Shown here one piece after another: positions 6,849 through 27,022 of a DNA stretch of 64,000 bases. Made by a program: the position numbers and the translations under genes. The notes under the pieces are model-generated. The model did no database searches. It had not been told where the DNA came from and saw nothing but the letters and a program-made list of their open reading frames with translations. The DNA comes from Candidatus Kaiserbacteria bacterium. Its GTDB lineage: Bacteria > Patescibacteriota > Minisyncoccia > Phycocordibacterales > UBA2100. The stretch is taken from assembly GCA_016432285.1 (NCBI GenBank), contig CP066682.1:288933-352932 (forward strand), given 5' to 3'. Position 1 is the first letter of the stretch. Each line of letters opens with the position of its first letter.

Positions 6849-6942
6849 GAAGGTGATCTTTATCCATCGTGGATTGAAAGCGGGGGCTTTTCGCCGCAAA
6901 GCGGGGCTATACTTTCGGTATAACAATTGTCCGCGTAAAGAT

Positions 6943-8409: not shown

Positions 8410-9129
8410 TTGCTTCCAGACAAGGATGACTTTCGCGCTGCGGCGATGTATACAGTCTCCATGGCGACGCAGTTCAACGACTGGTTCCGCACGCGCACGA
8501 CGCTCTTCTTGTACTGGGCTGTTTTCGCGCTCGTGCTTCTCGCCGCAGCGCTCTTCGCGCTTCGGGGCGATCTCGCCTCTGCCTTCGGGACGCTGCTGAT
8601 CCTCCTTCTCATGCTGGGGCCCACGATCCTGAAGCAGCGATATCGCCTCCATATTCCGTTTGCGCTCGATCTCGGAATCGTCGTCTTTATATTTCTCACG
8701 CTCTTTCTTGGCGGTATCGCCGAGTTTTACGACCGCATTCCGTTCTGGGACAAATTTTTGCACTTCCAGTCGGGGCTCCTTCTCGGCGCCGCGGGATACC
8801 TCCTCGTCTACATTCTCAACGAGCACGAGAAAATTCACCTGAATCTCTCGCCGGGGTTCGTCTCTTTTTTTGCGATCACCTTCTCGCTCGCGATCGGCGC
8901 GGTGTGGGAAATCTTCGAATTTGCGGGCGACCAGCTCTTCGCGATCACCTTCTGGCAAGGAGTCGGCGTGGCGGACACCATGTGGGATCTCATCGCCGAT
9001 GGGGCGGGGGCGCTCATCGTGAGCGTGAGCGGCTACTTCTGGATGTACCGGCACAAACGGCTGCCGTTCACCCCGTGGCTCTTCCGTTTTTTCTCCGAGA
9101 GGCTCAAAGGTGTCAGAGACGAGCGCTGA
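8410..9129 (+). CDS. polytopic membrane protein (uncharacterised)
   Basis: 239-aa ORF, about 6 TM. The start could be one of the downstream Met codons at 8446 or 8461. Confidence 0.55.
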   Translation: MLPDKDDFRAAAMYTVSMATQFNDWFRTRTTLFLYWAVFALVLLAAALFALRGDLASAFGTLLILLLMLGPTILKQRYRLHIPFALDLGIVVFIFLTLFLGGIAEFYDRIPFWDKFLHFQSGLLLGAAGYLLVYILNEHEKIHLNLSPGFVSFFAITFSLAIGAVWEIFEFAGDQLFAITFWQGVGVADTMWDLIADGAGALIVSVSGYFWMYRHKRLPFTPWLFRFFSERLKGVRDER

Positions 9130-9170
9130 TTCTCGGAACGACTTTTCCACAGGCTACGCACCATGCATGC

Positions 9171-9200
9171 TTGACGCCTGATACCCCCCGGGGGTATTAT
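9171..9200 (+). promoter_or_regulatory. promoter (TTGACG-18-TATTAT) overlapped by the 17-bp palindrome ATACCCCCCGGGGGTAT (CsoR-type operator)
   Basis: GC-rich perfect inverted repeat at 9181..9197 between -35 and -10. The csoR ATG at 9209 makes the transcript leaderless or nearly so. Confidence 0.6.
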
Positions 9201-9208
9201 GCGGGCAT

Positions 9209-9478
9209 ATGAGATCACCGATCAAGCAAAAGGCGCTGCGGCGCCTCAAGATTATCGAGGGGCAGGTGCGCGGGCTCCGGAGCATGGTGGAGGAGGAGAA
9301 GTACTGCGTGGACATCATTACCCAGTCCAACGCGGTCAAAGAGGCGCTCTCCGGCGTCGAGGATTTGGTGCTCGAAAATCACCTCTCGACCCACGTGCGG
9401 CACCAGATGAAGAGCGGGAAGGACGCGAAGGCGATCGAGGAGGTCATGAAGATCTACAAGCTCGCGCAGAAGAAATAA
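9209..9478 (+). CDS. csoR: CsoR/RcnR-family metal-sensing transcriptional repressor
   Basis: 89 aa. LRRLKIIEGQVRGLRSMVEEEKYCVDIITQ...HLSTHV matches the DUF156 metalloregulator pattern. Confidence 0.8.
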   Translation: MRSPIKQKALRRLKIIEGQVRGLRSMVEEEKYCVDIITQSNAVKEALSGVEDLVLENHLSTHVRHQMKSGKDAKAIEEVMKIYKLAQKK

Positions 9479-9587
9479 GTCTATGAAGACGCAACGGATT
9501 TTCTCTACGGTGCGTGTGGCGGGAGGGAGGTCGATCCCGGCGCAGTAACCGGATTCGTGAGGATTATCAAGTAACGAACAAAAAGGT

Positions 9588-9935
9588 ATGGATACGAAAT
9601 TGATTACAGGCATCGTCGGCGGACTGATCGTAGGCGCTCTCGCGGGCTTCTACCTCTCTCCCGGCTCGAGCTCGCAGAGCGCGAGCGGCATGACGAGTGA
9701 GATGAACAACGCAGGCATGATGATGCAGCAGGGCGGCTCGTCGATGATGCAGATGGGGCAGATGATGATGTCGGCTGGGCAGATGATGCAGCAGAAAGGC
9801 ACGCAGTACGAAGATTCGGAGATGATGCAGAGCGGCAAGGAGCTTGAGACGAGCGGCAACACCATGATGCAGCAAGGCAAGGAACTCTCGGACGAGAGCG
9901 GACCACTGATGCAGGGCATGCAAATGGGTCAGTAA
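9588..9935 (+). CDS. Met-rich membrane-anchored protein (putative Cu(I)-binding)
   Basis: N-terminal TM, then MMMQQGGSSMMQMGQMMMSAGQMMQQ-type repeats. About 25% Met. Confidence 0.55.
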   Translation: MDTKLITGIVGGLIVGALAGFYLSPGSSSQSASGMTSEMNNAGMMMQQGGSSMMQMGQMMMSAGQMMQQKGTQYEDSEMMQSGKELETSGNTMMQQGKELSDESGPLMQGMQMGQ

Positions 9936-9968
9936 GCGAAGATTACCAACTTCTTATAGAAAGCACGT

Positions 9969-10214
9969 ATGAACAGGACACTGAAAATTGGCGCGGCATG
10001 GACAAGTATCGCGTGGACTGTGTGTTACGTAGGTGTGGGACTCATTCCGCAGCTCCGCGACACGGTCCTCAACAATCTCGTCCACACAAATGTGCCCGTG
10101 GGAGCCAACATCTTTTCGCTCGGCGGTTTCCTCGCGGGCCTCGTTCTGTGGAATGTGATCGTGGCGGCGGGAATCTGGCTCTGGTTCTTCCTCGCGGCGC
10201 GGATCAAAAGCTAG
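9969..10214 (+). CDS. small membrane protein
   Basis: 81 aa with 2-3 TM. Inside the copper island. Confidence 0.4.
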   Translation: MNRTLKIGAAWTSIAWTVCYVGVGLIPQLRDTVLNNLVHTNVPVGANIFSLGGFLAGLVLWNVIVAAGIWLWFFLAARIKS

Positions 10215-10239
10215 CGAATCAGAAACTATCATCGAACGT

Positions 10240-10680
10240 ATGAGCACCACCCCAAAACCAGCACTCTTCGGGCTTCTTGCGAGTACATCGCTTCTTGCGG
10301 TGTACTTCGCGGTGCTCACGCTGGTTTCGGGGTGGAGCTTCGCGCAGAATCAGTTCGCAACCTACTGGTACTTCATCGTGAGCCTTGCGCTCGGTTTTGG
10401 AGTACAGATCGGACTCTACACGTATCTCCGCAGATTGCTTGCCGGCATGCACGGCGAAGGAAGGGTCGTGGGGGTAACGGGCACGACCTCGGCACTCGCG
10501 ATGATCTCGTGCTGCGCTCACTACCTCGCCAACCTGCTTCCGATCCTCGGCGCGGTGGGGCTCGTCACCTTCGTCGCGTCCTACCAGACGCAGCTTTTCT
10601 GGATCGGCCTCCTCTTCAATCTCGGCGGGACCCTCTTCATGGCAAACCGCATCCGCTCGTTCAAGAAAATGCACGTATGA
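10240..10680 (+). CDS. membrane protein with CC motif (uncharacterised)
   Basis: 146 aa, 4 TM, ISCCAHY in a helix. Confidence 0.5.
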   Translation: MSTTPKPALFGLLASTSLLAVYFAVLTLVSGWSFAQNQFATYWYFIVSLALGFGVQIGLYTYLRRLLAGMHGEGRVVGVTGTTSALAMISCCAHYLANLLPILGAVGLVTFVASYQTQLFWIGLLFNLGGTLFMANRIRSFKKMHV

Positions 10681-11138
10681 AAAACGCGTTGCTCTACATA
10701 AGCGTCGCACTCCTCGTCGGGCTCGGGATCTATGCGTTTGCAATACGCGGGCAGGAGAGCGCGGCGCCTGCCAGTGTGCAATCGAATGTGCTGGCGGAAG
10801 GCACGTGGGAGACGAAGACCAATAACGAGGCGTCGGTCACGGTGGCCGTAACGCCGCTCTCGCTGGGTGGGAGCGCTTCCGAGTGGCGGTTCAAGGTGGT
10901 CTTAGACACGCACACGGGCAGCCTCGACCGGGATCTTCTTGAAACGACCACGCTGTCAGACGGCTCAGGCGCGACCTACCGCGCTTCGCGCTGGGAAGGC
11001 GATCCACCCGGCGGGCATCACCGCGAAGGGGAGCTGACCTTCGAGCGAATCGACCCGACTCCTTCACGCATTACCATTCGTATAAACGATCTTGGCGGCG
11101 TCCCGGAAAGGACCTTGAGCTGGGACATCCAAAAATAA
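10677..11138 (+). CDS. secreted hypothetical protein
   Basis: ATGA start/stop overlap with the upstream gene. N-terminal TM or signal, beta-rich domain with GGHH. Confidence 0.55.
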
Positions 11139-11139
11139 T

Positions 11140-11355
11140 ATGAATCACGATTGTTGCGGCGGCCACGAGAAGCACGAACACAAAGCTTCGACCGCAAGCG
11201 CAGAAACGTACACGTGCCCCATGCACCCCGAGGTGCAGAAGGACGAGCCCGGCTCGTGCCCGGATTGCGGCATGTACTTGGTCCCGAAGTCGGCCGAGGC
11301 AACCGGGGGGCACCACAAAAACGAAGGCGCGCACAAAGGCGGGTGTTGCTCGTAA
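11140..11355 (+). CDS. heavy-metal-binding-domain (HMBD, YxCPMHP...CPxCGM) mini-protein
   Basis: YTCPMHPEV...[11 protein letters not shown] core flanked by [11 protein letters not shown] and [16 protein letters not shown]. Confidence 0.7.
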
Positions 11356-11436
11356 ATCACACGGCTTCCACATTGTATGAACACGAAAATTCTATTGATA
11401 AGTACTCTGGGGATCGCGGTCGTCGCAGGCGCGGGC

Positions 11437-11543
11437 AGAAGATCGTCATGGTGACGCACGAGCTGGACGATCGGCAGTATGTCGACCGCACGATCTGGCT
11501 TGAGGACGGGCGTCTGGAAAAAGTCGAGGAGGGCGTGAAGTAG
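11437..11543 (+). pseudogene. C-terminal remnant of an ABC transporter ATP-binding protein
   Basis: Frame encodes ...GQKIVMVTHELDDRQYVDRTIWLEDGRLEKVEEGVK (H-loop/C-terminus) with no Walker A/B upstream. Confidence 0.45.
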
Positions 11544-11547
11544 GTCT

Positions 11548-12408
11548 ATGGATATTCTCACCAACGTATCGATCGTCGCGGCGTTCATCGCCGGAGTTGC
11601 GGCGCTCTTCGCGCCGTGCTGTATCACGGTGCTGCTTCCGTCGTACCTCGGCTCGGTCTTTCAGGAGCGCTACAAGGTCCTGCTCATGACGTTTGTCTTT
11701 TTCCTCGGCATCCTCGCGGTCTTTCTTCCCATCGGCCTCGGGGCCGCCGCGCTCGCGCGCTTTTTCAACACCTACCACAATTTCATCTTCACGCTCGGGG
11801 GACTCATGCTCTCCGGACTTGGTATCGCGCTCATCCTCGGCAAAACGTTCTCGATTCCTTCGCCGGTCTCTGCGCGCTTTGCTGGCACGGGCGCGCTCTC
11901 GATCTTTCTGCTCGGCGTCTTTTCGGCCGTGGCAACGACGTGCTGCGCACCCGTGCTCGCGGGCGTCCTCGCGCTCTCTGCGGCGAGCGGCAGTATCTTC
12001 TGGGGCGGCATCTACACCTTGAGCTACGTGCTCGGCATGGTTGCGCCACTCTTTCTCATCGCCGTCTTCCTCGACAAAGTGGATTTCACGGAGCGGTTCG
12101 CGACGCTGCATAAAACACGCACAGCTAAGATCGGGCGCTTCGAGTGGACGTTCAAACCCGCGGAGCTTGTTGCCGGACTCGTGTTCCTCGGGATGGGGAT
12201 CTACATCATCTACCTCGCGCTTGCGAATCAGCTCACCATGGAAGGGGGCTACCAGCTCGAGATCAATCTCTTCTTTGCCAACCTCGTACACTCCGTACAC
12301 CGCTACACGCAGACTATCCCAGAGATCGCGTGGGCCCTCTTCGTACTGGCTGCGCTTGTTCTCATCGCGTGGTTTTCCATTTATCAGTTTATTCGCATTA
12401 AAAAGTAA
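11548..12408 (+). CDS. CcdA/DsbD-family thiol:disulfide transmembrane electron carrier
   Basis: 286 aa. Cys pairs inside TM helices: FAPCCITVLLP and ATTCCAPVLAG. Confidence 0.7.
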   Translation: MDILTNVSIVAAFIAGVAALFAPCCITVLLPSYLGSVFQERYKVLLMTFVFFLGILAVFLPIGLGAAALARFFNTYHNFIFTLGGLMLSGLGIALILGKTFSIPSPVSARFAGTGALSIFLLGVFSAVATTCCAPVLAGVLALSAASGSIFWGGIYTLSYVLGMVAPLFLIAVFLDKVDFTERFATLHKTRTAKIGRFEWTFKPAELVAGLVFLGMGIYIIYLALANQLTMEGGYQLEINLFFANLVHSVHRYTQTIPEIAWALFVLAALVLIAWFSIYQFIRIKK

Positions 12409-12413
12409 TCGCT

Positions 12414-13001
12414 ATGGAAAATAGCTCAAAAACGTTCGTCGTCGTTGGTCTTATCGTACTTGCGGTCGTCATCGCGCTTGTCGCGCTCTTTAATACCAAT
12501 CCGTCCGGCGCGGCGCGTGAAGCAGGAGGAGTGGGCGCCGATCTCATCGGCGCGCCGCTTCCCTCGGTCACGCTCTACGACAAAGACGGAAAGGCGTACC
12601 CCATGGAAAGCCTCGCGGGCAAAAACGTGGTGCTCTTTTTTAACGAGGGCCTCATGTGCTACCCGGCGTGCTGGGACCAGATGACCGCATTCGGCGCGGA
12701 TCCGCGTTTCAACAGCGACGAGACCGTCGCCCTCTCGGTCGTCGTGGATTCCCCCGCAGACTGGCAGCAGGCTATCGCCAAGATGCCGGAGCTTTCGAAG
12801 GCTGCGACTCTCTTCGACCAGGGCGCCGCCGTTTCCCGGCAGCTCGGTGTTCTCTCGTACGGCTCGTCGATGCATGCTGGGCAGCTTCCGGGACACACCT
12901 ACGTCCTCCTCGACAAAGCGGGGATCGTGCGCGAGGTGTTCGACGATCCGAACATGGGCGTGAACAACGACGCGATCATGCAAAAGATCTCGGCCTTCTA
13001 G
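12414..13001 (+). CDS. Sco1/SenC-like thioredoxin-fold protein (CxxxC copper chaperone-like)
   Basis: N-terminal TM. VVLFFNEGLMCYPAC reads as CxxxC, with a downstream His (SMHAGQLPGHTYVLLDKAG) as in Sco proteins. Confidence 0.6.
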   Translation: MENSSKTFVVVGLIVLAVVIALVALFNTNPSGAAREAGGVGADLIGAPLPSVTLYDKDGKAYPMESLAGKNVVLFFNEGLMCYPACWDQMTAFGADPRFNSDETVALSVVVDSPADWQQAIAKMPELSKAATLFDQGAAVSRQLGVLSYGSSMHAGQLPGHTYVLLDKAGIVREVFDDPNMGVNNDAIMQKISAF

Positions 13002-13004
13002 TCT

Positions 13005-13400
13005 ATGAAAAAACTATTGAGCGTGCCGCCGATGACGCTGATTCGGATCGGCCTCGCGCTCGTGTTCCTCGCGAACTCGATCACGGCGTTCGTCTACCCA
13101 TCGGAATTTATCGAGCTCATCGAAGCGTCATTCGTCGCCGGTATTCTCGGTCTCGTTGGCGTCAGCCCCGCGCTCTTTGTCGTCGGGATAGGCTTCAACG
13201 ATGCGATCGTCGCCGCGCTGCTCTTCCTCAATAGAGGGAGAGTAATTGCTTCGGTGTGGGCTTCGCTCTGGCTCGTCGCAGTGCTTCTAGTGCGCGGCGA
13301 GCCTCTGGAGATCCTAGAGGAATCGGGCTTCCTCCTCATGGCGCTCGCGCTCGCGCAGGAGAGCTGCCGCGTGGTGCTCACCAGTGCTCGGAAACGCTAA
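13005..13400 (+). CDS. DoxX family membrane protein
   Basis: 131 aa, 4 TM. Begins LIRIGLALVFLANSITAF. Confidence 0.65.
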   Translation: MKKLLSVPPMTLIRIGLALVFLANSITAFVYPSEFIELIEASFVAGILGLVGVSPALFVVGIGFNDAIVAALLFLNRGRVIASVWASLWLVAVLLVRGEPLEILEESGFLLMALALAQESCRVVLTSARKR

Positions 13401-13428
13401 CGACGAGATATCCACATCCGCGAAGCGC

Positions 13429-13456
13429 TTGACATCATACCCCCCGGGGGTATCAT
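13429..13456 (+). promoter_or_regulatory. promoter (TTGACA-16-TATCAT) overlapped by a second copy of the palindrome ATACCCCCCGGGGGTAT
   Basis: Identical 17-mer at 13437..13453, 10 nt before the ATPase start codon. Confidence 0.6.
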
Positions 13457-13462
13457 AGCACC

Positions 13463-15700
13463 ATGACCAACAAACACGCACAACACGAAACGCATCAGAA
13501 AGGGAAGTCGAGCGCCGAAGAGAGCGCGATCTACACGTGCCCGATGCATTCGGAGGTGCGGCAGAAAGGTCCTGGCAAGTGCCCGGGCTGCGGCATGGAT
13601 CTGATCCCCGCCAGAACCCCTGCGGTCACCTCCGCGAAAGAGGGGACAAGCGAACATGCGGGCCACGATATGCAGGAGGTGAGTCACATGGATCACGAGG
13701 CCGCGATGACGAACCCGCAGATGGCAAAGCAGATGGAAGCCGACATGCGCCGCCGCTTTGTGATCTCGTTCCTGCTTTCGATCCCGATTTTCCTCTATTC
13801 GCCGGTGATGACGAGCTTTTTTGATATCACGCTCCCATCTCCGATTCCGGTCAACTGGCTGCTCTTTCTACTCACGACCCCGATCGTCTTCTGGACCGGC
13901 TCGATTTTCATCACCGGCACGTACTATTCGCTGAAAGCGCGGACCCTCAACATGGCGGTTCTCATCGCGACCGGCGTCCTCGCCGCCTACCTTTTCAGCG
14001 TGCTCCTTACCGTGGTGCAGCCCGAGGCGGAGACGTTCTACGAGGCGGCCGCGCTCCTCGTCACTTTCGTGCTCTTCGGCCACTGGATGGAAATGAAATC
14101 GCGCCGCGGCACATCTGACGCCTTGCGGGCTCTCTTTGATCTCGTCCCGCCGAAAGCACTCGTTGTTCGTGGTGGCAAAGAGATCAGCATCCCGAGCGCC
14201 GAAATCGTGCACGGCGATATCGTGGTCCTACGACCGGGCGATAAGGTGCCGGTCGACGGGGAGATCGTTGAGGGCGAGTCCTCCATCGACGAATCGCTCG
14301 TGACGGGAGAATCAATCCCTGTCGCGAAGAGCATCGGTGGCAAAGTGGTTGGCGGCTCGGTGAACCAGACGGGCACGCTGAAATTTAAAGCCACCGAGGT
14401 CGGCTCTGAAACCGTGCTCGCGCAGATCATCAAGCTGGTCGAGACCGCGCAAAACTCCAAAGCGCCCGGGCAGCGCATCGCGGATCGGGCGGCGGGCTGG
14501 CTCGTGGTGCTCGCGATCGGCTCCGGCCTCGCTGCCTTTTTCGGGTGGTACTTCGGGGCGAATGCGGGGCTTCTCACGGCGCTCACTTTTGCGATCTCGA
14601 CGGTGGTGATCGCATGTCCCGACGCGCTGGGGCTCGCGACGCCGACGGCTGTCGCCGTCGGCACAGGCATCGGCGCGAAGCACAACATTCTCATCAAGGA
14701 TGCCGCGACTTTGGAAAACACCTCGCGCCTCACCGCGATCGTGCTCGATAAAACGGGGACGCTGACGGAAGGCAAGCCGAAGGTAACGGAGATCGTCGCC
14801 GCTCCCGGCTACCAGAAAGACGATGTGCTTGCGCTCGAAGCGGCGGCGGAAAAGGGATCAAATCATCCGATCAGCGCCGCGATCCTCGAGGAAGCGCAGA
14901 GGCGGGGAGTTGCAACCGCGAGGCGAATCGAGAAGTTTGAGGCCATCGGCGGGCACGGCGTGCGCGCGACGGCAGACGGAAAAGTACTGCTCGCGGGCAC
15001 CGAGCGCCTCATGGAGACCAACAACGTCGATCTCTCTCCGATCAAGAAAGACATCGACCGCCTCCTTCAAAGCGGTAATACGATCAGCATTCTCTCGGTC
15101 GACGGCAAGGCGGCGGGCGCGATTGGCGTTGCTGACACGATCCGGCCTTCCGCTCGAAAAGCCATCGCCGCGATGAAGCGTTTGGGGCTCGAGGTAGCAA
15201 TGATTACCGGCGACCATACGGAAGTCGCGAAGGCCGTCTCGAGCGATCTTGGCATCGATCGCTACTTCGCGCAGGTCTTGCCGGAAGATAAAGCGAAGTA
15301 CGTCAAAAAGCTCCAAGACGAAGGCAAGTTCGTTGCGATGGTGGGCGATGGGATCAACGATGCGCCGGCCCTGGCCCAATCCGACATCGGGATCGCGATC
15401 GGCGCTGGCACAGATGTCGCAATCGAGACGGGCAATATCGTCCTCATGAAATCTGACCCGTACGACATCGTCGCGGCACTGAGGCTCAGTAAAGCGACCG
15501 TCGTCAAAATGAAGCAGAATCTTTTCTGGGCAGCGATCTACAACGTGCTGGCGATTCCCGTCGCGGCCGGCGTCTTCTACACCTGGCTCGGCTGGTCGCT
15601 GCGGCCCGAGATCTCAGCGCTTCTCATGTCGGCTTCTTCAATCATCGTCGCCACCAATGCAGTCTTACTGAAGCGCGTCGAGTCGAAGCTGAAGCTCTAA
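13463..15700 (+). CDS. P1B-type heavy-metal (copper) translocating ATPase, atypical CPD transmembrane motif
   Basis: 745 aa. N-terminal His-rich stretch plus HMBD (YTCPMHSEV...CPGCGMDL). Contains DKTGTLT and GDGINDAP. TM6 reads IACPDALGLATP (CPD, not CPC). TM7 has YN and TM8 has MSASS. Confidence 0.9.
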   Translation: MTNKHAQHETHQKGKSSAEESAIYTCPMHSEVRQKGPGKCPGCGMDLIPARTPAVTSAKEGTSEHAGHDMQEVSHMDHEAAMTNPQMAKQMEADMRRRFVISFLLSIPIFLYSPVMTSFFDITLPSPIPVNWLLFLLTTPIVFWTGSIFITGTYYSLKARTLNMAVLIATGVLAAYLFSVLLTVVQPEAETFYEAAALLVTFVLFGHWMEMKSRRGTSDALRALFDLVPPKALVVRGGKEISIPSAEIVHGDIVVLRPGDKVPVDGEIVEGESSIDESLVTGESIPVAKSIGGKVVGGSVNQTGTLKFKATEVGSETVLAQIIKLVETAQNSKAPGQRIADRAAGWLVVLAIGSGLAAFFGWYFGANAGLLTALTFAISTVVIACPDALGLATPTAVAVGTGIGAKHNILIKDAATLENTSRLTAIVLDKTGTLTEGKPKVTEIVAAPGYQKDDVLALEAAAEKGSNHPISAAILEEAQRRGVATARRIEKFEAIGGHGVRATADGKVLLAGTERLMETNNVDLSPIKKDIDRLLQSGNTISILSVDGKAAGAIGVADTIRPSARKAIAAMKRLGLEVAMITGDHTEVAKAVSSDLGIDRYFAQVLPEDKAKYVKKLQDEGKFVAMVGDGINDAPALAQSDIGIAIGAGTDVAIETGNIVLMKSDPYDIVAALRLSKATVVKMKQNLFWAAIYNVLAIPVAAGVFYTWLGWSLRPEISALLMSASSIIVATNAVLLKRVESKLKL

Positions 15701-15707
15701 CATTCAT

Positions 15708-16202
15708 ATGAACGAGATAGGTACGTTTGTACGGAACCCGCTCGCGCTCGCTGGCTTCCTCGTGCTCCTCGGCGCGTTCGCTTTCATTTTGCTACGCAAG
15801 CCCGCTCCGCCCTTTTCTGCGACGATCGGCTCGTGTCGCGTGGGAGAGGCGTGCCCGGGGGGCGCGCAATTGAGCAGCGTTCCAACCATCGAAAGCAACG
15901 AGCTCGTGGCTGCGCTTGAGGTGAAAGATTTTTTCTTCGTAAACGTTCACACGCCATACCAAGGAGAGATCGGTAAGACTGACGCATTCATTCGGTACGA
16001 CGAAATAGGAGACAATCTCGACAAGCTGCCGCAAGACAAAAGCGTGAAGATCGTTCTCTACTGTCAGAGTGGCCGCATGAGCGAGATTGCCGCAAAAAAG
16101 CTCGCGTCGCTCGGATACACCAACGTCTCCCACCTTAAAGGCGGCATGGTCGAGTGGGAGAAGGAAGGGTACGAACTCATCCGGGAGGGAAGCGCACGGT
16201 AG
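15708..16202 (+). CDS. membrane-anchored rhodanese-domain sulfurtransferase
   Basis: N-terminal TM. Active-site loop IVLYCQSGRMS. Confidence 0.75.
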   Translation: MNEIGTFVRNPLALAGFLVLLGAFAFILLRKPAPPFSATIGSCRVGEACPGGAQLSSVPTIESNELVAALEVKDFFFVNVHTPYQGEIGKTDAFIRYDEIGDNLDKLPQDKSVKIVLYCQSGRMSEIAAKKLASLGYTNVSHLKGGMVEWEKEGYELIREGSAR

Positions 16203-16212
16203 GAGTCAACGT

Positions 16213-16659
16213 ATGAACGTACGCATACACGCAGGACACATCGCGCGCACACCGGCCATACAGGAGCGCATCGGTTGGATCTGCACGCTGCTCGAGCGAG
16301 CGGCGGATCCGCGGGACCTCTTGCGGCTCTCGTGCGACATCACGCTCACGAAGATCTCCCGCGGCGCAGCGCGTGGACGCTTCCGAGCGACCATCTATTT
16401 TGCGGGGGCGGGAGAACCTTTGACCGCAACGGGTGTGGGCGAGACACCTGAGACCGCGCTCGACGGCGCGCATGATACGATCGAACGGCACTTCTCTCTT
16501 GTGCGCAGAGGGGAACTCGGCACCCGGAGGATTACGGATTTTGCGCGCCGCCAGAATATCGCCCGAAGAGCGGTGGAGCGCGCGAAAGAGCTTGCGAGAA
16601 AGAAGGCGCCATCGTGGAGGGTGACGAAGCGCCGCCGTTTCGGCGACGAAGAGCAATAA
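16213..16659 (+). CDS. ribosome hibernation factor (HPF/RaiA/YfiA family)-like
   Basis: AGGAG lies 8 nt upstream of the ATG. MNVRIHAGHIARTPAIQERI...ALDGAHDTIERHF follows the HPF pattern. Basic C-tail. Confidence 0.55.
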   Translation: MNVRIHAGHIARTPAIQERIGWICTLLERAADPRDLLRLSCDITLTKISRGAARGRFRATIYFAGAGEPLTATGVGETPETALDGAHDTIERHFSLVRRGELGTRRITDFARRQNIARRAVERAKELARKKAPSWRVTKRRRFGDEEQ

Positions 16660-16668
16660 TTTAAAAAT

Positions 16669-18186
16669 ATGAGCAAGCAATACTTTTATATCGCGGTCGC
16701 AGTAGCGCTTCTTGGCGGGGGATTTGCCGCGTTTAGTTATCTGCCCTCGCTCTCGACACCTCGCTCCGAAGTTTCGCAAATCGTGGAACTTCAAGACGGC
16801 GATTCGTATGATCTCACGGCGGGATTCGTGCAAAAGGAGATCGACGGCAAGACGTATCGCTTGCTCGCATACAACGGCTCGATCCCGGGGCCCCTTCTCA
16901 AGATCCCGCAGGGCGCAGAGGTAACGATCAATTTCAAAAATGGCACCGACATGAAAACGCTCCTGCACTCGCATGGCGTCCGCATGGAAAATGCCTTCGA
17001 CGGCTCTCAAACCACGCAGGAGGAAATGGAGCCGGGAGAAAGTTTCGCGTACACACTGAAATTCCCCGACGCCGGTTTCTTTTGGTATCACCCACACGTG
17101 CGTGAGGATTATCAGCAGGAGCTGGGGCTCTACGGCGGCTACCTTGTCGTGCCGAGCGAGGAAGGGTACTGGTCGCCGGTGAATCGGGAGATCCCGATCT
17201 TTCTCGACGACATTCTGATCGAGAACGGGAAGATCAATCTCAATAAAGAAGGCGCCGACAAAACGCTCATGGGCCGCTTCGGCAACGTGATGCTCGTCAA
17301 TGGGGAAACGGATTACAGTCTCAACGTGAAAAAGGGAGAGGTGATCCGCTTGTATGTAACCAATTCGGCGAACACCCGCACCTTCAATTTCGCGATCGAG
17401 GGCGCGCGCATGAAACTCGTCGGTGCCGACAGTGGAGCCTACGAGAAGGATACGTGGATCGATTCGGTGATCCTCGGGCCTTCTGAGCGCGGGATCGTGG
17501 AGGTCCAGTTTCAGGGCGCCGGCACGTACGTCGTCCAGAACAAAACGCCGGAGCGCACCTACGCCCTCGGCAGCGTGCGCGTTGCCGAGGAGGCGGTGGA
17601 GGAATCGTACGCGGCCAGTTTCGCAAACCTCGCGACGCACGCGCAAACGATCGCGAGTATCGATCCGTTTCGCGCGTACTTCGACGACCCGCCTCAAAAA
17701 CGCCTCGCGCTCACCGTCGACATGAACATGGGCAGCATGAACATGCAGGGTATGTCGATGATGGATGGTTCGACTTCGCTCACCACAAACGGAATCGAGT
17801 GGGAGGAAGGGGAGAGCGCCATGATGAACGCGATGTCAGGCGGCTCGGTCAGGTGGAACATCGTGGACCAAGAGAGCGGCAAAAAGAACATGGATATCGA
17901 CTGGGCTTTCGCGCGAGGGGAGCCGGTCAAAATCCGTATCTTCAATGACCCGACGCAGGCTCACCCCATGCAGCACCCCATCCACTTCCACGGCCAGCGC
18001 TTTCTTATTGTGAACAAAAACGGACAGCCGAATGACAATCTCGTGTGGAAAGACACCGTTTTAATCCCTGCGGGGCAATACGTTGACATCCTCCTCGATA
18101 CTTCGAATCCGGGCACCTGGATGGCGCACTGCCACATCGCCGAGCACCTCGAGGCTGGTATGATGATGAAGTTCACTGTCGAGTAA
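16669..18186 (+). CDS. multicopper oxidase (CueO/CopA-like)
   Basis: Cu-site motifs HSHG, HPHV, HFHG and HCHIAEHLEAGMM. Met-rich insert MNMGSMNMQGMSMMDG. N-terminal TM. Confidence 0.85.
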   Translation: MSKQYFYIAVAVALLGGGFAAFSYLPSLSTPRSEVSQIVELQDGDSYDLTAGFVQKEIDGKTYRLLAYNGSIPGPLLKIPQGAEVTINFKNGTDMKTLLHSHGVRMENAFDGSQTTQEEMEPGESFAYTLKFPDAGFFWYHPHVREDYQQELGLYGGYLVVPSEEGYWSPVNREIPIFLDDILIENGKINLNKEGADKTLMGRFGNVMLVNGETDYSLNVKKGEVIRLYVTNSANTRTFNFAIEGARMKLVGADSGAYEKDTWIDSVILGPSERGIVEVQFQGAGTYVVQNKTPERTYALGSVRVAEEAVEESYAASFANLATHAQTIASIDPFRAYFDDPPQKRLALTVDMNMGSMNMQGMSMMDGSTSLTTNGIEWEEGESAMMNAMSGGSVRWNIVDQESGKKNMDIDWAFARGEPVKIRIFNDPTQAHPMQHPIHFHGQRFLIVNKNGQPNDNLVWKDTVLIPAGQYVDILLDTSNPGTWMAHCHIAEHLEAGMMMKFTVE

Positions 18187-23528: not shown

Positions 23529-25082
23529 ATGCCATCGCCAGCCTCCATCATCGCAACGATCCGACAGCGGCCTTTTTTTTATGGGGCGATAGCCGTGGCA
23601 GTACTTGCCGTGGCCTTCTTTCTCTCGGGCGGCAAAAAAGAAGATCCGGAGGTGCTCACCGCCACGCGCGGGAACTTCGTGCAGGAAGTGAGCGTCTCGG
23701 GCACCGTGATAGCCGCTGAAGACGTCGAGCTCGGCTTTACGCAGGGTGGTCGCGTCGCGGCCGTGCGCGCAAAGGTGGGCGATCAAGTAGGGGCGGGTGC
23801 CACCCTCGCATACCTTGAAAACGGCGACCTTGCTGCCGCCGTCGCGCAGCGGAATGCGGCACTCGAAAAGGAGCGCGCCAAGCTCGCGCAGCTCCAGTCC
23901 GGCACGCGACCCGAAGAGGTCGCGATCAAACAGGCGGCAGTCACCGAGGCGCGCGTCTCGCTCGATCGGGCCAACGAGGCGCTGATCGACTCGATCCTCG
24001 ACGCGTACACGACCGCGGACGACGCCGTGAGCAACACGGTCGACCAGTTCATCAACAATCCGCGCTCCAACCCGCAGCTCGAGTTTTCCGTAGCCGACAC
24101 GAAGTGGGAGAGCGCGCTCGAAACAAAGCGACCCTCCGTCGAGACCATGCTGGTAAGCTGGCAGAGCGAAGTGAACGCGCTGAGCCCGACTGCCGATCTC
24201 ACCGCGGCCGTCTCGAAGGCGCGCGCCAATCTCTCGACCATTTCAGATTTCCTTATTGAAGCCAACGGAGCTTTGAATTCCGGCATCACAACGCTCACCT
24301 TTACCGAAAGCGTGCGCGACGGCTACATCGCCGACGTCGGCGGAGCGCGCTCCAGCGTCAACGCCGCATCTTCGGCGCTCACCTCTGCCGTGACCGTGCA
24401 GAAAAACGCCCAGGCGTCGCTCGATACTGCCAACAGGAACCTCACGCTCTCGGAGGCCGGTTCCGAAAACGCTGACATACAAGCACAAGCAGCCGTCGTG
24501 AAGGCAGCCGAGGCCGACGTGCAGAGCGCACAGGCCCAGCTGCAAAAAACGATCATTGTCGCTCCTTTTAGCGGCATCGTAACGCGCGTCGACATCAAGC
24601 GCGGCGAGATCGCGTCGGCAAACGCCTCTCCCATCGCCATGATCGGCAACGGCGCGTACCAGATCGAGAGCTTCATCCCCGAGGTCAATATCGCGCGCAT
24701 CGAACTACGGGATTCGGCGATGGTAACGCTCGACGCATACGGCGATGAGGAGGAGTTTGTCGCTACGGTAGTGTCGATCGATCCGGCGGAAACGGTACGC
24801 GACGGCGTCTCTACCTACCGCGCGCTCCTCCAGTTCGATGCGACCGACACGCGCATCCGCACCGGCATGACCGCCAACGTGCGAATCACGACCGAAGAGA
24901 AGAGCGATGTCGTGAGCGTTCCGCAGGGAGTCGTGATCGCTCGGGAAGGCAAAAAATACGTCAAAGTACAATCGGGCAAGGATGTCGTCGAACGGGAAGT
25001 GACGACCGGCTCCACCGCGAGCTCCGGCAACATCGAAATACTGACGGGCCTTCAGGGAGGAGAGATCCTCGTGCTTCCGTAG
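23529..25082 (+). CDS. periplasmic adaptor (HlyD/MacA-like membrane fusion protein)
   Basis: N-terminal TM, long coiled-coil, C-terminal beta domains. Directly upstream of the FtsX/ABC pair. Confidence 0.75.
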   Translation: MPSPASIIATIRQRPFFYGAIAVAVLAVAFFLSGGKKEDPEVLTATRGNFVQEVSVSGTVIAAEDVELGFTQGGRVAAVRAKVGDQVGAGATLAYLENGDLAAAVAQRNAALEKERAKLAQLQSGTRPEEVAIKQAAVTEARVSLDRANEALIDSILDAYTTADDAVSNTVDQFINNPRSNPQLEFSVADTKWESALETKRPSVETMLVSWQSEVNALSPTADLTAAVSKARANLSTISDFLIEANGALNSGITTLTFTESVRDGYIADVGGARSSVNAASSALTSAVTVQKNAQASLDTANRNLTLSEAGSENADIQAQAAVVKAAEADVQSAQAQLQKTIIVAPFSGIVTRVDIKRGEIASANASPIAMIGNGAYQIESFIPEVNIARIELRDSAMVTLDAYGDEEEFVATVVSIDPAETVRDGVSTYRALLQFDATDTRIRTGMTANVRITTEEKSDVVSVPQGVVIAREGKKYVKVQSGKDVVEREVTTGSTASSGNIEILTGLQGGEILVLP

Positions 25083-25085
25083 GGC

Positions 25086-26339
25086 ATGTTTTCACCCCTC
25101 AATATCCGGATCGGCTTCTACCTCGCCTTGCGGGCGCTGCGGCGTGCCTCGCTCTGGACCACCGGTCTCATTGTCTTCGTGATGGTGCTCACGTTTTTGA
25201 ACCTCGTGGTGATCTCCGGCATTCTCGTGGGCCTTTTGCAGGGAGCCGTCGATGCCGTGCGCACGCGCTACACGAGCGACGTGATCATCTCCACGCTGAG
25301 CGATAAGAAATATATCGAAAACAGCCCCAACCTCATCGAGCTCGCCCGCAACCTCGAGGGCGTCGAGGCGCTGACCCCGCGTTATCGCGAGTCGGCCTCG
25401 CTCGAAGCCAACTACCGCACTCGCAAAGAATCCGACAAGGCCAACATCGCGCCGGCGCAGATCATCGGTATCGATCCCGCAAGTGAAGACGAAGTCACGG
25501 GGCTCTCGGAAGATCTGATCGAGGGGGAATTTCTCGTGCCGGGTGATTACGACAAGATCGTGCTCGGCAACTACCTCCTCAAGCAGTACATGGTGATCGA
25601 AACCCCCGGCCTCGCGACTCTGGAGAACGTCGGGATCGGCACGAAGATCCGCATCCACGTGGGGGACGTCACGCGCGAGGTGGAGGTGAAAGGGATTCTC
25701 AAGAGCAAGGTCGACGAGATCGCGCTCCGTGCCTTCATGGTGGACTCGCAGTTCCGGAGCATGATCGGTCGCAACGACGGCAACGTCGACGAAATCTCGA
25801 TCAAGGTGGAGGAAGATGTTGACCCGGCAGAAGTGCGCGACGCGCTTTTGCTGCGGGGAGCCGGCAACGACGCGCGCGTCCAGACGTACGAGGATGCGCA
25901 GCCGCAGGCGTTCAAGGACATCATCGCGACCTTCAGTATGCTCGGGACTATGTTCTCGTCGATCGGCCTCGTGGTCGCCTCGGTTACGATCTTCATCGTG
26001 ATTTTCATCAACGCGATCACGCGGCGCAAGTACATCGGCATCTTGAAAGGCATCGGCATTCACGGAAAGGTGATCGAGCTCTCGTACGTCTTCCAGTCGA
26101 TCTTCTATGCGGTGCTCGGCTCAGCGGTCGGGCTTGCGCTCGTGTACGGCTTCCTCGTTCCGTATTTCGCCAATAATCCGATCGACTTTCCCTTCAGCGA
26201 CGGCATCCTTGTGGCGCCCATCAACCAGACTTTCTTCCGGGTAGGCCTTCTCATCGTCTCCACGGTCATCGCCGGTTACATTCCCGCGTGGATGATCGTG
26301 CGGCGCAACACGCTCGACTCGATACTCGGTCGCAACTAG
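25086..26339 (+). CDS. ABC transporter permease, FtsX/MacB-like
   Basis: 417 aa with N-terminal TM, a large extracytoplasmic domain and 3 C-terminal TM. Confidence 0.8.
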   Translation: MFSPLNIRIGFYLALRALRRASLWTTGLIVFVMVLTFLNLVVISGILVGLLQGAVDAVRTRYTSDVIISTLSDKKYIENSPNLIELARNLEGVEALTPRYRESASLEANYRTRKESDKANIAPAQIIGIDPASEDEVTGLSEDLIEGEFLVPGDYDKIVLGNYLLKQYMVIETPGLATLENVGIGTKIRIHVGDVTREVEVKGILKSKVDEIALRAFMVDSQFRSMIGRNDGNVDEISIKVEEDVDPAEVRDALLLRGAGNDARVQTYEDAQPQAFKDIIATFSMLGTMFSSIGLVVASVTIFIVIFINAITRRKYIGILKGIGIHGKVIELSYVFQSIFYAVLGSAVGLALVYGFLVPYFANNPIDFPFSDGILVAPINQTFFRVGLLIVSTVIAGYIPAWMIVRRNTLDSILGRN

Positions 26340-26341
26340 CT

Positions 26342-27022
26342 ATGATCAGGACAAAAAATCTCACGAAGACATTTAAGAACGGCGACGTGGAAACGCGCGT
26401 CTTGAAGGGCATTGATTTTGCCGCCGGGCAGGGAGAGTTTATCGCGATCATGGGCAGAAGCGGCGCCGGGAAGAGCACCTTTTTGTATCAGATTAGCCTC
26501 CTCGACGATCCGACGGGCGGCGAGATCGTGATCGACGGGCATGACACGCACACGATGAGCGCCGAGGAGAAGATGCTCTTCCGGCTCTCGCGCTTCGGAT
26601 TCGTCTTTCAGGACTACGCGCTCCTTCCGGAGCTCACGGCGCTCGAAAACGTAGCGGTGCCGCTTTTGATGCAAGGCAAGACGAAGAAAGACGCGTATGC
26701 TTCCTCCTCGGCAGCGCTCGATCGCGCTGGCCTGGGGCATCGCCTCAACAATCTCCCGAGTCAGCTCTCCGGGGGAGAACAACAGCGCGTGTCGATCGTG
26801 CGCGCCGTCGCGCACAATCCGAAAATCTTGTACGCCGACGAGCCGACCGCCAACCTCGACAACGATTCCTCCGCGAAGATCATGGAGATCTTTAAGGAGC
26901 TGCACGCCAAAGGTCAGACCATCATCATGGTGACGCACGAGGAGCAGTACGCGAAAATGGCGCAGCGCATCGTGCGTCTCGACGACGGAAAAATCGTCTC
27001 CGAGACGAAGGCACTTTCATGA
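26342..27022 (+). CDS. ABC transporter ATP-binding protein (MacB/LolD type)
   Basis: Walker A GRSGAGKST, signature LSGGEQQR, H-loop. Confidence 0.85.
   Translation: MIRTKNLTKTFKNGDVETRVLKGIDFAAGQGEFIAIMGRSGAGKSTFLYQISLLDDPTGGEIVIDGHDTHTMSAEEKMLFRLSRFGFVFQDYALLPELTALENVAVPLLMQGKTKKDAYASSSAALDRAGLGHRLNNLPSQLSGGEQQRVSIVRAVAHNPKILYADEPTANLDNDSSAKIMEIFKELHAKGQTIIMVTHEEQYAKMAQRIVRLDDGKIVSETKALS

Follow-up and report, generated by a model that had tools for sequence, protein, structure and literature searches.

The copper repressor CsoR of Streptomyces lividans binds the site ATATACCCCTNAGGGGTATAT. Each site accommodates two tetramers and, according to mutagenesis and isothermal titration calorimetry, binding is lost if any base of the TAC/GTA dyad (TAC-X9-GTA) is mutated (PMC3902906). 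For Corynebacterium glutamicum, the CsoR box is quoted as ATACCCCnnnGGGGTAT (PMC5057107). In both organisms, operators lie before csoR, which is autoregulated, and before the copper ATPase operon. Here, we describe a similar predicted arrangement, including autoregulation, in the ultra-small genome of Candidatus Kaiserbacteria bacterium, a member of the Patescibacteria. We analysed 64,000 nucleotides (GenBank assembly GCA_016432285.1, contig CP066682.1, positions 288,933 to 352,932; hereafter, the window). Within the window, one 17-bp sequence occurs both before a csoR gene, encoding a CsoR-family repressor (positions 9209-9478), and before a gene for a P1B-type copper ATPase (13463-15700). 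From sequence comparisons, we consider it very probable that both copies are operators for this repressor.

Three other systems are relevant. First, CsoR of Thermus thermophilus HB8 (TTHA1719, Protein Data Bank entry 3AAI) is linked to a copper ATPase and has a Cys-His-His ligand shell, with a Tyr/Glu second shell. Its operator, CCCCACCCCACCTGGGGTGGGG, differs from that of the window. Proteins of this type, designated x-C-H-H, are classed as a cluster of Cu(I) sensors with the conserved Tyr/Glu second shell and a copA/copZ neighbourhood. The same literature proposes that His at the final ligand position, Z, may relax metal selectivity or raise promiscuity. Note that, in CsoRs, the second-shell Tyr, which precedes the Cys, and a Glu in helix 3 couple Cu(I) binding to DNA release. 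Second, at csoR-cueA of Bradyrhizobium liaoningense, the CsoR box (TATACCCCTACCGGGTATA) overlaps a -10 element, and rapid amplification of cDNA ends (5'-RACE) placed the transcription start at the A of the csoR ATG. Hence, the mRNA is leaderless. Third, Escherichia coli RcnR is a nickel and cobalt sensor with H-C-H-H ligands, among them His3 and the amine of the N-terminus. It controls an rcnA-type exporter from a type-1 operator of the form TACT-G6-N-AGTA.

The 17-mer, ATACCCCCCGGGGGTAT, is present exactly twice in the window, in the same orientation, and both copies read on the + strand (9181-9197 and 13437-13453). In shuffled sequence, approximately 0.03 matches with up to three mismatches would be expected by chance. 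At the same threshold, the 64 kb contained only these two places, and no other near-copies. Searches of the same 64 kb for TACCCC-N5-GGGGTA (up to two mismatches), ATACC-N7-GGTAT (up to one mismatch), and direct repeats, also returned nothing beyond the two copies. While the original prediction correctly located both sites, it described a perfect palindrome. The 8-bp arms, ATACCCCC and GGGGGTAT, are indeed perfect, but the single central C breaks strict self-complementarity, and the reverse complement differs by one base. Written as ATACCCC-CCG-GGGGTAT, the sequence has the TAC-N9-GTA geometry of a type-2 CsoR box. It is an exact instance of the C. glutamicum pattern, and shares with the C. 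glutamicum and S. lividans sites the 17-bp geometry and TAC/GTA dyads around C/G tracts.

Both copies are embedded in promoters. A consensus scan of positions 8800-16800 identified four promoter-like sites, and the best two coincide with the 17-mers. The csoR promoter (TTGACG-18-TATTAT, 9171-9200) matches the consensus at 10 of 12 positions. The ATPase promoter (TTGACA-16-TATCAT, 13429-13456) scored highest, with 11 matches. In each case, most of the spacer consists of the 17-mer, of which the terminal TAT doubles as the first three bases of the -10 element. The two regions are alike only in GCTTGAC, the 17-mer, and the -10 element; we therefore rejected a recent block duplication. The three bases at the centre of the box, otherwise variable, are CCG in both copies and in only 2 of 71 family sequences. 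This suggests that the module was copied, or that both operators are tuned to one protein.

To place the csoR promoter in context, we used a profile of 30 homologues to search species-representative genomes. Of 266 relatives found, 80 loci were kept. Nearly all are from Patescibacteria (Saccharibacteria, Peribacteria, Paceibacterota, Kaiserbacteria, Nomurabacteria, and others), with a GC content of 38-55%. A TAC-N9-GTA box, extended to ATAC-N9-GTAT, sits directly upstream of csoR in 79 of the 80 (80 of 81, with the window included) and, in the exception (L052), one base of the box is changed. Conservation and spacing were counted using 71 non-redundant upstream sequences. In the box, no variation is seen at positions 1-4, 6, and 12-17, and very little at 5, 7, and 11, while the three central bases are free. 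Flanking positions carry only about 0.1-0.5 bits each; higher values are confined to the -35 region and to the T in sixth place of the -10 element (1.75 bits). The -10 element is always TAT followed by three variable bases (TATTAT in 21 cases, TATCAT in 14, TATAAT in 9, others in the remainder) and, in most loci, a TTGAC-type -35 element lies 15-18 nt upstream. These results, together with the published consensus, support the original proposal that the 17-mers are CsoR-type operators over the spacer and -10 element, and that csoR is likely autoregulated. Since box and csoR co-occur almost perfectly, a different regulator is unlikely.

Related loci normally have one box per 10 kb, located before csoR; in L034 and L038, there are only weak extra matches to the regular expression for the box. 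In about 64 of the 80, a P1B ATPase is encoded past csoR on the same strand, usually 250-1500 nt away. By this comparison, the common design appears to be one operon, autoregulated and containing both csoR and the ATPase gene. In the window, by contrast, these two genes lie further apart, with approximately 3.9 kb of extra genes in between, and the ATPase has a promoter and operator of its own. The window also differs from the B. liaoningense locus, where a single box serves a bidirectional promoter and the cueA leader is 42 nt. Here, two co-directional promoters each have a box, and both transcripts are predicted to be leaderless. As a separate observation, CsoR proteins of 88-90 residues are 66-83% identical across Saccharibacteria, Peribacteria, Paceibacterota, and Kaiserbacteria, and across metagenome-assembled genomes binned as Gammaproteobacteria and Bdellovibrionales. 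Such identity across classes suggests horizontal spread of a cassette, very strong constraint, or mis-binning.

As a control, we scanned metagenome contigs for the pattern ATACCCCNNNGGGGTAT, without reference to genes. This identified 122 sites on 120 contigs, with a GC content of 34-74%. Fifty-five boxes were directly upstream of an open reading frame (ORF) for a CsoR-family protein, most commonly 9 nt from the start codon. A further 12 preceded genes for P1B ATPases (7), CopZ-like proteins (4), or a protein with a heavy-metal-binding domain (HMBD; 1). The signature of CsoRs adjacent to boxes was Y-C/H/C/E in 37 cases and Y-C/H/H/E in 4. On this evidence, the same classical box appears to serve both ligand variants, C-H-C and C-H-H. 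Two contigs had more than one box. In L179, boxes at 1310-1326 and 6889-6905 each have their own csoR paralogue, with leaderless spacing, one followed by an HMBD protein and the other by a P1B ATPase. In L101, two tandem boxes are 37 nt apart before a single csoR.

The window csoR encodes an 89-residue protein and, over residues 6-83, this matches PF02583 (Trns_repr_metal, DUF156; E = 3.3e-26), a domain that spans the three-helix protomer. Relatives with solved structures were detected with E values of 1e-13 to 1e-4. The closest are copper sensors of Geobacillus thermodenitrificans, S. lividans, T. thermophilus, and Mycobacterium tuberculosis, whereas InrS and FrmR score lower. The C...H..H pattern noted previously corresponds to C33, H58, and H62 (C-x24-H-x3-H). 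These residues, along with Y32 and E78, are invariant in the 30 homologues. Y32 and E78 align with Y35 and E81 of M. tuberculosis CsoR, and so with the second shell coupled to Cu(I). Hence, with a Cys-His-His shell, a CsoR second shell, and a cop neighbourhood, the protein falls in the x-C-H-H subgroup of the T. thermophilus type. Helix 1 is also similar (RRLK here, RRL within RRRLL in T. thermophilus) and neither has RLXR. However, T. thermophilus CsoR has an additional N-terminal His5, a ligand for some authors, that the window protein lacks. Furthermore, the latter is no closer to T. thermophilus CsoR than to C-H-C CsoRs (47 versus 54.5 bits). Compared with S. lividans CsoR, R12 and Q39 (equivalent to R54 and Q81) are conserved but R57 is replaced by Ile15, Z is His62 rather than Cys, and there are no tails.

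Some observations weigh against the assignment of the 17-mers to a copper-responsive CsoR. The operator scan covers 64 kb of a genome of approximately 859 kb. No second operator was found near the ATPases in the 80 related loci. In the metagenome sample, 56 of the 122 boxes had no recognised copper gene adjoining, using a limited reference set for gene labelling; these sites include contig edges, probable chance matches, and unlabelled genes. In the repressor, the canonical Cys-His-Cys first shell (C36/H61/C65 in M. tuberculosis) is not present. In an alignment with 3AAI, the Z column is Cys in G. thermodenitrificans, S. lividans, and M. tuberculosis, and His in T. thermophilus. Similarly, the helix-1 motif RLXR, of which R57 contacts DNA in S. 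lividans, is replaced by R11-R12-L13-K14 throughout this family. Besides Cu(I), the T. thermophilus protein reportedly binds Cu(II), Zn, and Cd, and it is reported to respond to several metals in vitro. Finally, the 8 nt between the csoR -10 element and ATG is long for transcription starting exactly at the ATG.

The ligand set bears on the effector. Conceivably, the physiological signal for the same repressor and operator is a metal other than Cu(I). It could be Ni(II)/Co(II), like that of RcnR or InrS, or span a wide range of thiophilic and divalent metals (Zn, Cd, Ag). H62 fits this idea, because RcnR, of the same PF02583 fold family, also has His at Y and Z, as does the promiscuity of the T. 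thermophilus protein. So does the pump. P1B-1 ATPases have a CPC motif in transmembrane helix 4 and P1B-3 ATPases have CPH, accompanied by YN(x)4P and MxxSS/MSxST. The transmembrane motifs of the window ATPase are CPD, YN (YNVLAIP), and MSASS, with CPD (14615-14623, residues 385-387) in place of CPC or CPH. CPD also occurs in the two closest csoR-linked ATPases, from L006 (79% identity) and L076 (57%), and is an atypical P1B subtype noted in a few Rhizobiales ATPases. Nevertheless, we regard an effector other than Cu(I) as unlikely. The original prediction, that the ligand pattern of the repressor resembles RcnR more than a canonical CsoR, did not hold. The N-terminal His of the RcnR H-C-H-H set, at position W, is absent; the N-terminus is MRSPIK, there is no His in residues 1-57, and the protein starts two residues short of RcnR His3 (the profile alignment offset puts Met1 at RcnR position 3). 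The RicR model scores 63.8 bits and the RcnR model 43.2 bits, where the RcnR cutoff is 138, and the Tyr-Cys pair and second-shell Glu are invariant. The operator (ATAC-C5-C-G5-GTAT) is a type-2 CsoR box, unlike that of RcnR. No RcnA-like gene, and no RcnA or Nre-type exporter, was found in the 7-20.5 kb region of the window. Instead, the neighbours are a copper-type P1B ATPase, for which the closest solved relatives are CopA proteins, a multicopper oxidase, and HMBD proteins. Pumps linked to csoR in orthologous loci have CPC (29), CPH (27), or CPD (2), so most orthologues pair with CPC and CPH copper ATPases. Because the neighbouring genes are copper-specific, orthologous loci have such pumps, and the second shell is kept, the effector is most likely Cu(I), though selectivity might be relaxed. 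Caution about the metal in the original prediction was fair, given the reported promiscuity of the x-C-H-H subgroup.

Next, we consider transcript starts. The csoR ATG (9209) is 8 nt past the -10 element, in agreement with the original coordinates, and an upstream in-frame TGA (9179-9181) bars an earlier start. The ATPase ATG (13463) is 6 nt past its -10 element and there is an in-frame stop within the -35 element. Among the 71 non-redundant loci, the commonest distances are 6 nt (37 loci) and 8 nt (24), with 7 nt and 9 nt in 4 loci each, such that 69 fall between 6 and 9 nt. Of the 24 loci with 8 nt, 22 have A at +7, and the sequence reads ATATG in 21. We conclude that transcription probably begins with the first base of the AUG, or 2 nt before it. 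The window csoR promoter belongs to the 8-nt class (A9207, ATATG) and the ATPase promoter to the 6-nt class. Hence, the proposal of a leaderless csoR mRNA stands as a prediction, supported by spacing in orthologues and the RACE precedent, with an amendment; a start at A9207, leaving a 2-nt leader, is equally possible. The ATPase transcript, not considered previously, is probably leaderless too. In a crude survey of the window, Shine-Dalgarno motifs could be recognised for only a minority of likely start codons. Since usage is this weak, a missing motif is not, by itself, evidence of leaderlessness. A literature search for leaderless translation in Patescibacteria found nothing specific. In the window, start codons at 23529 and 43043 also have a promoter-like -10 element 6-7 nt upstream, hinting that leaderless genes may not be rare in this genome.

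The same spacing argues against a different arrangement, in which the promoters are mis-assigned and the palindromes lie in a 5' leader or read-through transcript, acting as RNA hairpins or roadblocks, with mRNAs that are not leaderless. The 17-mer can form a hairpin of 7-9 bp, read-through from the csoR promoter would transcribe the ATPase site, and the weak Shine-Dalgarno usage means that a missing motif is not diagnostic. We think this quite improbable because, across the 71 loci, TTGAC-type -35 elements and -10 elements of the form TAT+nnT occur at fixed spacing, and the ATG is 6 or 8 nt past the -10 element in 61. This leaves no room for a leader from this promoter. B. liaoningense, furthermore, provides a leaderless csoR mapped by RACE. 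Terminators and structured RNA elements were rejected separately; the hairpins are no more stable than those of shuffled sequences (z scores of -1.2 and -1.6), there is no U-tract, and there is no Rfam match at E of 1 or below.

The origin of the sites must also be weighed. Identical copies in the same orientation bracket csoR and nine further genes. One possibility is that they mark the ends of a 4.3-kb insert (9198-13436), as direct repeats or as scars of recombination. Alternatively, they could be recognised by a different DNA-binding protein or, as they contain CCCGGG, by a restriction-modification system. Between the HMBD and DsbD-like genes, at approximately 11430-11543, we found a C-terminal relic of an ABC-transporter ATPase (GQKIVMVTHELDDRQYVDRTIWLEDGRL...), resembling the intact ABC ATPase encoded at 26288-27022. 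Because of this relic, the block between csoR and the copper ATPase appears to be a mosaic, assembled by recombination. The absence of a counterpart to the ATPase-proximal copy in the 80 related loci is compatible with such an insert. Even so, we judge a non-regulatory role very unlikely. The csoR-proximal copy is ancestral; 79 of 80 loci have it, as a single copy, in the matching place in the promoter, which the end of a mobile element would not explain. Both copies are part of complete promoters, the box tracks csoR, copA, and copZ genes across unrelated taxa in the pattern-first search, and there is no transposase or integrase in the 9198-13436 segment.

Taken as operators, the two sites suggest the following mechanism. 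Metal-free CsoR, by analogy as two tetramers per site, would bind the TAC-N9-GTA box, and thereby cover the spacer along with the upstream part of the -10 element. RNA polymerase would then be shut out of both promoters. Cu(I) binding at an inter-subunit site (C33/H58'/H62'), coupled through Y32 and E78, would release CsoR and switch on two co-directional operons. The first would comprise the autoregulated csoR and nine genes with envelope, thiol-redox, and metal-binding functions (9209-13400). The second, from 13463 onward, would encode the P1B copper ATPase, rhodanese, and probably the multicopper oxidase. Both transcripts would start at, or no more than 2 nt from, the start codon and be translated as leaderless mRNAs. 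In this scheme, we directly observed the sequence, the geometry of the promoters, the family and conserved ligands of the protein, and the pairing of box and csoR throughout the phylum. Binding, stoichiometry, effector metal, transcription starts, and operon extents are predicted.

To our knowledge, almost no transcriptional regulation has been characterised in Patescibacteria. The locus thus offers a confident, testable assignment of regulator, operator, and promoter in an uncultivated member of this group. In essence, it appears to be an ordinary copper-inducible switch of the CsoR type, notable mainly for a promoter layout that recurs across Patescibacteria, and understanding of how CsoR represses is unchanged. 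What it adds is an ATPase transcript predicted to be leaderless, an x-C-H-H sensor lineage using the canonical CsoR box, a conserved layout, and an unusual CPD pump. The leaderless, or near-leaderless, promoter design seems fixed across many lineages of the candidate phyla radiation, and could aid annotation of promoters and start codons. A broader proposal is more doubtful, though possible. Patescibacteria might share a compact, horizontally exchanged copper cassette, consisting of a -35 element, a box fused to the -10 element, a leaderless AUG, and an x-C-H-H CsoR of 89-90 residues, in which sensor selectivity is relaxed or shifted (His at Z, RRLK for RLXR). In the window, the promoter-operator module would have been copied before an atypical CPD P1B ATPase. 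If true, the cassette would be one of a small number of cases in which a regulator and its operator can be paired with confidence throughout the candidate phyla radiation. It would also offer a natural test of how a Cys-to-His swap tunes CsoR selectivity.

Table 1. Operators, promoters, and genes of the predicted copper regulon. Positions are those of the window.
Feature	Position	Strand	Basis or remarks
csoR promoter -35, TTGACG	9171..9176	+	Promoter scan; TTGAC-type hexamers in most of 71 non-redundant loci
Operator 1, ATACCCCCCGGGGGTAT	9181..9197	.	Type-2 CsoR box; place kept upstream of csoR orthologues
csoR promoter -10, TATTAT	9195..9200	+	Promoter scan; first three bases are the last three of operator 1
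Predicted csoR transcription start	A9207 (+7 from -10, AUAUG) or A9209 (A of ATG)	+	Predicted from spacing
csoR, CsoR/RcnR-family repressor, 89 aa	9209..9478	+	PF02583, 3e-26; x-C33-H58-H62; second shell Y32/E78
Met/Gln-rich protein, 115 aa, N-terminal transmembrane (TM) segment	9588..9935	+	First gene past csoR; translation
DUF5676 2-TM protein	9969-10214	+	Pfam
Membrane protein	10240-10680	+	Recurs near csoR in other Patescibacteria
Secreted protein	10677-11138	+	Recurs near csoR in other Patescibacteria
Cys/His-rich protein, 71 aa, HMBD	11140..11355	+	PF19335, 4e-14
DsbD/CcdA-like membrane protein	11548-12408	+	Pfam
Redoxin	12414-13001	+	Pfam
Small membrane protein	13005-13400	+	End of predicted csoR-promoter operon
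ATPase promoter -35, TTGACA	13429..13434	+	Promoter scan
Operator 2, identical 17-mer	13437..13453	.	Exact match, orientation as operator 1
ATPase promoter -10, TATCAT	13451..13456	+	Promoter scan
P1B copper ATPase, 745 aa	13463..15700	+	TIGR01511, 571 bits (cutoff 397); N-terminal HMBD, His/Met-rich stretch
Rhodanese	15708-16202	+	Profile search
Weak HPF/S30AE-like ORF	16213-16659	+	PF02482, 21.9 bits, below cutoff
Multicopper oxidase	16669-18186	+	Profile search

The remaining genes of the region are listed in Table 1, and their order is the same in two independent assemblies. The first protein encoded past csoR has no Pfam match but carries repeated MMQQ/MMMQ stretches. From its composition, it is plausibly an extracytoplasmic, Met-rich copper binder. 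The next three genes (DUF5676, membrane, and secreted proteins; 9969..11138) also adjoin csoR in L006, L016, L022, L066, L071, and L015. The genes from 11548 to 13400 are on the same strand with gaps of 3-5 nt, and we infer that they are co-transcribed as the end of the csoR-promoter operon. Unlike the C. glutamicum and S. lividans loci, the window has HMBD proteins, and no HMA-type CopZ was found in it.

Beyond the ATPase, the genes from 15708 to 18186 continue on the same strand, with gaps of 7-10 nt. The rhodanese, HPF-like ORF, and multicopper oxidase are, from this arrangement, probably co-transcribed from the ATPase promoter. Pairing of the ATPase with a multicopper oxidase recurs in L006, L076, and L079. 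Past the multicopper oxidase are DUF7282, DUF1573, and CcdA-like genes; overall, gaps after the ATPase are 1-53 nt. The HPF-like ORF, between the rhodanese and multicopper oxidase genes, has a GGAG Shine-Dalgarno motif. Lastly, the copper cluster is preceded, at a distance of a few kb, by genes for an N6/N4 DNA methyltransferase and a restriction endonuclease resembling Tsp45I (L001 1-1904, from the same organism; window approximately 3.2-5.1 kb).

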